The notes under the pieces: generated by a model
Seen by the model: only the letters and a program-made list of their open reading frames with translations
Databases searched by the model: none
Told to the model about the DNA's origin: nothing
Translations under genes and position numbers: made by a program
Assembly (NCBI GenBank): GCA_011364925.1
Contig: RDOA01000030.1
Coordinates: 1 to 41,244, forward strand
Length of the DNA stretch: 41,244 nt
Source: Promethearchaeota archaeon
GTDB lineage: Archaea > Asgardarchaeota > Lokiarchaeia > Sigyniarchaeales > SOKP01
Direction: 5' to 3'
Part shown: in pieces, positions 1,209-14,027 of the stretch
How positions within the stretch are numbered: position 1 is the stretch's first letter
How the letters are laid out: each line of letters starts with the position of its first letter

Positions 1209-1676
1209 ATGAAAGATAAATTTCAACTCATAGGTAAGAAAATTCAAGAATTTTCATTACCAAATACGAAAGGAGAAACAATAAATATTAGATCTTTTGA
1301 AGGAAAGAAAAATGTAATCGTCATATTGTTTCGGAGTATCAACTGACCTTACTGTAGATGGCATGCAGCACATTTAAGGAAAGATTATGAAAAATTCGGA
1401 GAAATGGAAACCGTCCTTTATCCAATTTTAGCAGATTCTGAAAATAATGCGAAAAAATTAGAACAAAAATATGCTCGTAAATATCCGATATTCTACGACC
1501 CAACAAAGAAGGTGCCAAAAATGCTGAATCAAGAGGTAAAATTATTAAAACTCGGGAGGATGCCGGGACTTTTGATTATAGATAAAGAAGGGATTATTCA
1601 ATATGCTTATTACGGAGACAGTATGAGTGATATTCCTGAGAATGAAATACTTTTCGAGGTATTAAAAAAAATATAA
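1209..1676 (+). CDS. Peroxiredoxin-like (AhpC/TSA family) selenoprotein, UxxC; in-frame TGA at 1344-1346 read as Sec
   Basis: ATG 1209 is in frame with track ORF 1404..1676. Read-through gives MKDKFQLIGKKIQEFSLPNTKGETINIRSFEGKKNVIVILFRSIN-U-PYCRWH..., 155 aa, with TGA at the first Cys position of the CxxC-equivalent motif. Confidence 0.85.
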
Positions 1677-1683
1677 ATAAAGC

Positions 1684-1754
1684 ATTTGGAGAAAGTAGAA
1701 TCGAAAACCAAAATGACATTTTACTTTTAAAAGGTTAGCCACACCTTTCCAAAT
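1684..1754 (+). promoter_or_regulatory. Structured 3'-UTR element (three-way junction with tandem GA/K-loop), candidate atypical SECIS
   Basis: ATTTGGA/TCCAAAT closing helix; 11-bp helix 1691-1701/1718-1728 capped by CGA...AUGAC; AAGGT/ACCTT hairpin. Lies directly after the selenoprotein stop codon. Confidence 0.45.
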
Positions 1755-2002
1755 CAATATAAATTTGTTTATGAAATTTGGGTATTTATATGAGTTTTTA
1801 ATTTTTTTTTCTCTTTTTTTATTAGAATTTTTCAATTATTCTTTACATCCAATATAGATATTTTGATAGAAGCAAGCTGGTTCTACAAGAGTTTAATAAA
1901 TGTTTGAGAGTTCATTAAAAGTTTTGCATGGCAAACTACATATATATTTTTATCATATTATAATTTAATAAAGAAACAATTGAAAAAAAAGGTTAAAACA
2001 AA

Positions 2003-13187: not shown

Positions 13188-13285
13188 ACAAAAATTCTCT
13201 TTTTCTTTTTTTTATATTTGAATTTTCTTAATATAACCTTTTTATAGTCATTCACTTTAAATTTTAAATTATTTTATTAAACAAT

Positions 13286-13798
13286 ATGAACGACGAAGAA
13301 CCCCCAAGACCAAGTGGATTATCAGAGAATTCTATCGCACCAATATTTGATACAAAAGACATTTACGGAAAAGAAATGAACTTAGAGAACTTACTTGAAG
13401 AATATAACGGAGTTTTGATAGATTTTTTTCGAGGTAACTGGTGAAGCCACTGTAAAAAACATCTATATCTTCTTACAGAAAACATTAAAGAATTCGAGAG
13501 CAGAAATATTAAATTAATATCAATAGCTAGCGATAGTGAACGACTTCTGAGGAAATTTAAGGAAGAGAACAATTTTGCGATTGATATGATTTCAGATAGA
13601 GGGGCAAAAATCGCAAAGGATTACGATGTGTATTGGTTTGCTCCTGGTGGAGGAGGAACTATACCTATAAAACAAGCTGTACCGAGCAAATTTTTGATAA
13701 ACAAGGAAAGAAAAATTGTGTGGACGTACATCGGAAAGGATAAAACAGATAGACCCTCAATAGAAATGTTGACGACTATAATTGACGAAAAATTATAA
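13286..13798 (+). CDS. Peroxiredoxin-like (AhpC/TSA family) selenoprotein, WUxxC; in-frame TGA at 13442-13444 read as Sec
   Basis: ATG 13286 is in frame with track ORF 13586..13798. Read-through gives ...APIFDTKDIYGKEMNL...LIDFFRGNW-U-SHCKKHL..., 170 aa; FxRGxWCxxC is the family motif. Confidence 0.9.
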
Positions 13799-13799
13799 C

Positions 13800-13863
13800 C
13801 CCCTATGGATGAGTCGTGTATAAAAATTATGGATACATGAGGACAACCTTGCCCTGGTAGGGG
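13800..13863 (+). promoter_or_regulatory. Eukaryote-like SECIS element
   Basis: CCCCTA/TAGGGG basal helix; AUGAG (13809-13813) opposite GGAC (13841-13844) giving tandem G.A; 8-bp helix UCGUGUAU/AUACAUGA; loop starts AAAAA. Confidence 0.8.
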
Positions 13864-14027
13864 ACTCTTATTTTTTTAAAAGGATATGTATAATTTAGTA
13901 AGTATAAAATCACTTATACAATAATGTCAAATCACGCGCTCAATAAGTATTTATTCAAGTTTATATCCAATAAATTATAAATAAAATTTTTTCTGAAAAA
14001 GGAACTCTTCAAGGAGGTTAAACTAAA

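Follow-up and report, generated by a model that had tools for sequence, protein, structure and literature searches.

Rediscovery of a Lokiarchaeal PrxL selenoprotein gene and its lokiSECIS element in a Promethearchaeota genome

The window analysed here, a stretch of 41,244 nucleotides from a Promethearchaeota archaeon, carries at 13286-13863 a known Lokiarchaeal PrxL selenoprotein gene together with the lokiSECIS that follows it. The locus is a rediscovery of something already known, because every testable defining feature of the published PrxL protein and of the published lokiSECIS is present in it; the match to PrxL.1 and PrxL.2 was made by their published description. Taking all the evidence together, it is very probable that a Lokiarchaeial (Promethearchaeota) genome here encodes a selenoprotein of PrxL type, into which selenocysteine (Sec) is inserted under the direction of a SECIS element. 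The family was described in Lokiarchaeota in two versions, PrxL.2, whose redox box begins with its one Sec, and PrxL.1, where both box positions are Sec, neither of them having any other Cys (Mariotti et al. 2016, PMC4989117). Later on, Huang et al. 2024 (PMC11227280) reported Prx-like selenoproteins from 43% of the Asgard genomes that use Sec, the accompanying elements being mostly of the type I eSECIS-like kind. The gene in the window is laid out as follows:

13286..13798, forward strand: PrxL (Prx-like, thioredoxin-fold) selenoprotein gene, 170 codons plus TAA, assigned from the frame, Pfam, AF2 and dN/dS
13442..13444, forward strand: UGA codon 53, first redox-box position, predicted to be read as selenocysteine from its conservation, its Cys pairing and an independent contig
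13451..13453, forward strand: TGT codon 56, resolving Cys of the U-x-x-C box, from the translation

At the level of the reading frame, translation table 11 yields two ORFs in the same frame, one of 52 aa (13286..13444) and another, ATG-started, of 70 aa (13586..13798). The original prediction mentioned only a 70-aa fragment, which is indeed there, with the 52-aa ORF upstream of it. Once the TGA at 13442-13444 is read through, both are joined in a single 170-codon frame that stops at the TAA at 13796-13798. This TGA is the only one in frame between 13286 and 13798, it falls in the motif FFRGNW-U53-SH-C56, and C56 is the sole Cys of the 170-aa translation. Pfam searches match this translation to AhpC-TSA (4.4e-22, 78.8 bits) and Redoxin (9.6e-16, 58.3 bits) over residues 17-160, that is, on both sides of the TGA, so that the full-length protein of AhpC/TSA fold proposed to result from read-through is borne out by the frame as well as by the domain match. 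The gene had been called hidden, which holds for gene callers, since they split the frame, but not for the literature, where the family was published in 2016. An annotation correction is therefore due, the gene being split or truncated in the track of this genome. In the public databases its relatives appear as 'partial redoxin' entries of 93-120 aa or carry W at the Sec position; the W seen in many full-length family members (P0002-P0032) is there because these were called under a table in which TGA means Trp.

An in-frame TGA might also be a nonsense mutation or an assembly error, in which case the locus would be either a pseudogene or a pair of small ORFs with no relation to each other, followed by a hairpin that is a mere terminator. 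The splitting of the frame by gene callers is in line with such a reading; the behaviour of the codon among relatives and in independent DNA speaks against it. In a search of 40 relatives, 16 congeneric genomes yielded orthologues with identities of 70-91%, each of which has TGA at codon 53; a paralogue group with two TGAs came up beside them. A wider scan, with one genome per species, extended the family to 79 loci, almost all of them labelled Promethearchaeota or Promethearchaeia. The motif is readable in 77 of the 79, and codon 53 is TGA in all 77 (64 UxxC, 13 UxxU and 0 CxxC), the codon 56 of the 13 UxxU species being a TGA for a second Sec. Close homologues thus conserve the TGA well beyond the genus. 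When compared with seven orthologues, dN/dS ranges from 0.02 to 0.19 for codons 1-52 and, where computable, from 0.02 to 0.05 for codons 54-170, while dS is above 1 or saturated and codon 53 is still TGA. Purifying selection acts on both halves of the gene, which is not what a pseudogene would display. Regarding a possible assembly error, a contig from an independent sediment metagenome, assembled in another study, is identical over 13357-13534, TGA included, and a second metagenome contig has 48 differences in 662 aligned positions (13239-13900) with none listed at codon 53. In these assembled contigs codon 53 is therefore TGA and not TGT or TGC. Among the orthologues, the closest one (91%) lies in a MAG labelled as a Nanopelagicaceae bacterium (L085), a contig that is probably mis-binned or mislabelled. 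An orthologue of 89% identity comes from a MAG named 'bin41' (L086), the isolate name under which a 2026 review lists the largest archaeal selenoproteome (PMC13188914).

A different question is whether the UGA is read through without Sec, by insertion of Trp, of Cys or by a suppressor tRNA, either locally or by a genome-wide reassignment of TGA. The W displayed by many database entries of the family, called as they were under the TGA=Trp table, could be taken in its favour. Against it, TGA ends 474 of the 3073 long ORFs of the source genome (15%), and reading it as sense merely raises the ORF cover from 84.6% to 86.5%; apart from such codons, TGA functions there as a regular stop. The adjoining W52 is encoded by TGG. 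Furthermore, distant homologues display the box R-G-x-W-C-x-x-C, with Cys at both positions in 136 domain alignments among the best 150 representatives. The requested alignment with Cys homologues consequently places a Cys opposite U53, also the first Cys of ResA, which reads as a classical Sec/Cys pair. Together with the full Sec machinery and the SECIS present in the genome, these data make a read-through without Sec highly improbable.

The source genome (3.9 Mb, 112 contigs, 33% G+C, 100% complete by markers) holds the genes expected for Sec synthesis and decoding. SepSecS is present with 377 bits, and there are two SelD genes, each of them with one in-frame TGA. A kinase of the PSTK/KTI12 family matches Pfam KTI12 with 126 bits and TIGR03574 with 169 bits (cut-off 290.5), and an EFSec-like GTPase (228 bits) adjoins tRNA-Sec and SepSecS. 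Both PSTK and EFSec are the best matches of the genome yet stay below the NCBIfam equivalog cut-offs, the models being built on Methanococcales and bacteria. The remaining component was less straightforward to locate:

G000:C64:6532-6682 (= L003:1128-1278), forward strand: tRNA-Sec gene with two inserts, between EFSec and SepSecS, recognised by ARAGORN after in-silico splicing

The Rfam tRNA-Sec model run over the genome returned ordinary tRNAs only, ARAGORN on the raw genome gave 12 tRNAs in all and no tRNA-Sec, and a strict tRNA-Sec pattern search produced one match, which was spurious. The gene was located by a scan for GC-rich islands on the EFSec/SepSecS contig followed by manual splicing of two introns: past position 37 the anticodon loop is interrupted by an insert of 28 nt, and the T loop by one of 30 nt. 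ARAGORN recognises the spliced sequence as a tRNA-SeC(tca) of 93 nt; its acceptor stem has 9 bp and its T stem 4 bp, the variable arm is long and the discriminator base is G. The gene encodes CCA. The published Loki tRNA-Sec, also linked to EFSec, has a 31-nt T-loop intron (PMC4989117) and no other, whereas the gene of the source genome has the anticodon-loop insert as well. Since tRNA-Sec, PSTK, SepSecS, EFSec and SelD are all found, as the original prediction had asked, the source organism would qualify as Sec-decoding.

The second half of the argument concerns the RNA element that begins 1 nt past the TAA and whose parts are the following:

13799..13863, forward strand: lokiSECIS (eukaryote-like, type I), whole element; model R1, with the same element in 79/79 orthologous loci
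13800-13805 CCCCU(A) with 13858-13863 (U)AGGGG, forward strand: helix I, by direct sequence reading
13809..13812, forward strand: AUGA, 5' half of the tandem G.A quartet of the SECIS core, invariant in 19 and in 84 aligned elements
13813..13841, forward strand: upper helix and loop, with 8 bp, 13814-13821 UCGUGUAU / 13833-13840 AUACAUGA, plus the non-Watson-Crick G13813.G13841
13822-13832, forward strand: 11-nt apical loop AAAAAUUAUGG, by direct sequence reading
13842..13843, forward strand: GA, 3' half of the quartet, then the invariant C13844; GAC is invariant in the relatives' alignment A3
13846..13858, forward strand: side hairpin ACC-UUGCCCU-GGU, flanked by the GA and by the 3' strand of helix I; a weak one of 3 bp in the window copy
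13871..13877, forward strand: T7 run, from the sequence

The stem-loop with AUGA, GA and an A-rich loop that had been proposed to abut the stop codon is read there without difficulty, and its 8-bp upper helix is the one that RNAalifold also draws. The window copy is not an ideal SECIS: the core-adjacent pair is a G.G, the loop has the A-run and the terminal G but ends in GG where AG is usual, the base before the terminal G being a G, and the side hairpin has no more than 3 bp, an alternative pairing of CCUUGC with GUAGGG being in competition with it. The T7 run is likely an archaeal transcription stop just past the SECIS, judging from its sequence, and T-rich runs also follow the SECIS in the orthologues. 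Unconstrained RNA folding does not single out the element (z = -0.67), its minimum-energy structure pairing the AUGA, and a promoter/terminator scan of bacterial type, applied here to an archaeal host, reports a terminator-like hairpin with a T-run that overlaps the 3' part of the element. The unremarkable fold energy and this hairpin both count in favour of a mere terminator behind a broken gene. A terminator would need neither the AUGA nor the A-run nor the GAC, all of which the hairpin keeps, nor would it need to co-vary as this one does; when this is added to the conservation of the TGA in 77 species, with dS above 1 and dN/dS at or below 0.19 on both sides, and to the identical contig from another study, a pseudogene or an artefact becomes extremely unlikely.

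The evidence for co-variation was obtained from the 3'UTRs of the orthologues. Common to them are the AUGA, a stem of 9 positions, an A-rich loop of 11 nt whose last base is G, and the GAC. The 8 bp of the window copy are recovered by RNAalifold, with compensatory changes in 6 of them. In a set of 19 elements made up of relatives only, the window's sequence being left out, 91% of the cells pair and double changes are seen in 9/9 pairs, a result reached in 0/500 shuffles and with no slid register coming close. The core-adjacent position is unpaired in 9/19 and in 42/84 relatives, and it behaves as a fourth non-Watson-Crick pair of the G.A quartet. A covariance model built from these 19 elements (R1), again without the window's sequence, gives on the 41-kb window a single match at 13795-13870, with 64.4 bits and an E value of 2.6e-12, so that the check with an Asgard SECIS model that had been suggested comes out positive and the window element exceeds chance. 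In addition, R1 matches 79/79 orthologous loci directly past the stop, and the alignment of 84 elements, fitted as it is to R1, contains 214 double-change cells. In the same genome, R1 also matches after two HdrA-VhuD tandems, one containing 3 and the other 6 in-frame TGAs; therefore, the same signal serves recognised selenoprotein genes of the source genome. Further matches follow another HdrA fragment and two small ORFs. One short ORF of zinc-ribbon type (CLNC..CHVC; L049:1343-1576, G000:C24) ends in K-TGA-TAA with a lokiSECIS of 63.9 bits 27 nt downstream, which could represent either a C-terminal Sec or an orphan SECIS. Another lokiSECIS (57.7 bits; L050, G000:C41:11683-11758, reverse strand) directly follows a membrane ORF of 61 aa that has a single helix and the motif GGG-U-PNIC.

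The searches with Rfam at gathering scores over the whole window, and with the Rfam SECIS models at E up to 10 over 13760-13900, returned no match; the hits of snoU43 (15 bits) and the PutA thermometer on the element were discarded as chance level. Regarding the side hairpin and helix I, a one-base register shift in ungapped MAFFT alignments blocks the count by columns and a per-sequence test was chosen instead. A side hairpin of at least 4 bp is possible in 94% of the 84 elements as compared with 55% of shuffles, and it appears in the constrained folds of the relatives as well as in the SECIS copies that follow the HdrA-VhuD genes of the source genome. At loci L153, L156, L160, L161 and L163, R1 has two matches on the same strand, about 650-730 nt apart, an arrangement that suggests tandem PrxL-type selenoprotein genes with one SECIS each. 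The UxxU forms of the family cluster in a more divergent group that includes these same five loci.

From these elements, the following sequence of events can be proposed. The mRNA would extend from the ATG (13286), past the TAA (13796) and the SECIS, to a probable end at the T-run at 13871-13877. When the ribosome reaches UGA-53, the kink-turn SECIS lying about 365 nt downstream would send EFSec and Sec-tRNA(Sec) to the A site. EFSec may be recruited directly or by an adaptor other than SBP2, which is not known in Asgard archaea (PMC4989117, PMC11227280). Sec would then be inserted and translation would go on to give a cytoplasmic thioredoxin-fold protein of 170 aa, in which U53 is expected immediately before helix 54-65 and C56 one turn later. 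This U53/C56 pair would cycle between the selenolate/thiol and the selenenylsulfide in the manner of a thiol-disulfide oxidoreductase of CxxC type, the nucleophilic attack being made by Sec. The suspicion that this is a true Sec protein is accordingly upheld by the conserved TGA, the Cys of distant homologues, the covarying SECIS and the machinery, while the insertion event is what these features would predict.

The AF2 model is a confident one (pLDDT 91.4); its fold is thioredoxin-like, and U53 immediately precedes helix 54-65. Its best structural matches are archaeal BCP/PrxQ proteins and the ResA of B. subtilis (TM 0.68-0.84). In the sequence alignments W-U-S-H-C lies over the W-C-P-H-C of a ResA variant, U53 corresponding to the first Cys of WCxxC; when BCP is taken as reference, U53 falls on the Thr of T-x-x-C and C56 on the peroxidatic Cys of BCP/PrxQ. 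The catalytic Pro, Thr and Arg of peroxiredoxins correspond to R49, U53 and Q130 (alignment to 2ywn and 2cx3), and the P-x-x-x-T/S-x-x-C motif plus Arg of typical peroxiredoxins is not found in the protein. A V-P133-S that is invariant in the PrxL family would occupy the cis-Pro position of ResA-like proteins. Because of the fold, the W-U-S-H-C/W-C-P-H-C alignment and the replaced Prx triad, the protein is best regarded as a probable relative of the CxxC-type thiol-disulfide oxidoreductases with Sec as nucleophile, and not as a typical peroxiredoxin. The term 'peroxiredoxin-like' of the original prediction is thus adequate for a Prx-like CxxC subclass and inadequate for a true peroxiredoxin. 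The best NCBIfam match is NF040769, at 51.7 bits against a cut-off of 120 bits.

Sec is a good peroxide reductant, and a genuine Sec protein of this fold might instead be a peroxidase, that is, a true peroxiredoxin that reduces peroxides through a selenenic-acid intermediate. The closeness to BCP/PrxQ (TM 0.84 with Bcp4) and the alignment of C56 with the peroxidatic Cys point in this direction. This possibility is rather unlikely in view of the replacement of the Prx Pro, Thr and Arg, of a W-C-x-x-C box and a V-P133-S that fit the TlpA/ResA class, and of the 2026 review that files the family as 'Prx-like thiol:disulfide oxidoreductase, UxxC/UxxU' (PMC13188914). A thiol-disulfide oxidoreductase, presumably acting on disulfides, is the function that fold and motif would favour. 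A more speculative proposal goes further: the PrxL clade would be made up of obligate selenoproteins, a reading drawn from the lack of any Cys form in 77 species and the repeated switching between UxxC and UxxU, and its SECIS would be a kink-junction in which the conserved ACC..GGU side hairpin replaces the canonical helix and docks an Asgard SECIS-binding factor. This proposal is doubtful as a whole; if true, an obligate-Sec clade would imply a chemistry that sulfur cannot replace.

The window contains a second Prx-like Sec gene:

1209-1676, forward strand: second Prx-like Sec gene, FRSIN-U46-PYC, 23% identical to the PrxL at 13286-13798
1675-1763, forward strand: three-way 3'UTR element after the second gene, from model R2, 47.3 bits

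Its single TGA is kept in 23 of 40 relatives and in 10 of 11 genera, and some of the orthologues have U-P-Y-A and hence no resolving Cys. The lokiSECIS model R1 has no match at any of the orthologue loci of this second gene. The element that follows it comprises an outer helix (GAUUUGG/CCAAAUC), a long hairpin whose apical loop has an A-run plus UGA, and a short hairpin with a conserved UAGCCA loop. R2, a model built from nine relatives, gave no match elsewhere in the genome among the 150 of 2439 candidates scored. In 16 elements, aligned by fitting to the model, 97.5% of the cells are paired and 15/20 pairs have double changes, whereas MAFFT and RNAalifold on the same 3'UTRs recover the outer helix only, a model-based alignment being required for the rest. 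The element at 1675-1763 is therefore a candidate for a second SECIS form. In two relatives, a single contig carries both of these Prx-like Sec genes, at a distance of about 9-10 kb (G013:C93, L023/L060; G014:C229, L025/L059); the spacing is 12 kb in the window, and the neighbourhood is therefore conserved. This second gene and its element are more interesting for study than the PrxL locus, which opens no new question. The PrxL locus constitutes one more well-supported copy of the Asgard selenoproteome and comes with figures for its family, Sec in 77/77 species and SECIS in 79/79 loci.

When the locus is set against the systems already known, the PrxL.2 and PrxL.1 proteins of Lokiarchaeota come first. 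They share with it the AhpC/TSA fold, the Lokiarchaeial host, the lokiSECIS directly past the stop, the UxxC (PrxL.2-like) or UxxU (PrxL.1-like) box in place of T-x-x-C, and the absence of Cys outside the box, and the comparison by description reveals no difference of substance. The published lokiSECIS is likewise reproduced, in agreement with the expectation that Lokiarchaeia employ eukaryote-like SECIS elements in the 3'UTR (PMC4989117): the window copy adjoins the stop codon near the end of the CDS and has the AUGA and GA(C) flanks, a stem of 9 positions (8 standard pairs plus the G.G) and an 11-nt loop that starts with AAAAA and ends in G. It differs in the core-adjacent G.G and in the loop end, GG and not AG; the ACC..GGU side hairpin goes unmentioned in the main text of PMC4989117 and PMC11227280. 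With eukaryotic SECIS elements it has in common the 3'UTR location, the AUGA..GA kink-turn core and the unpaired A's of the apical loop, but its upper helix is shorter, as originally remarked and as published as a hallmark of lokiSECIS (PMC4989117), and no Rfam SECIS model matches it; by analogy, the element would work like a eukaryotic SECIS while standing outside the Rfam SECIS families. The ResA/TlpA-type CxxC oxidoreductases and BCP/PrxQ (PDB 1st9, 3c71, 2ywn, 3hjp) have the same fold and a W-C-x-x-C that aligns with W-U-S-H-C, whereas the window protein has Sec for the first Cys, no signal or anchor seen and no Prx Pro/Thr/Arg triad. Finally, SelL, the UxxU diselenide protein of aquatic animals, resembles PrxL in its Prx-like fold and in the UxxU of the PrxL copies of 13/77 species; the window copy is UxxC, unlike SelL, and its score against the 'SelL-related redox protein' family NF040769 lies far under the cut-off, which places it outside that family.
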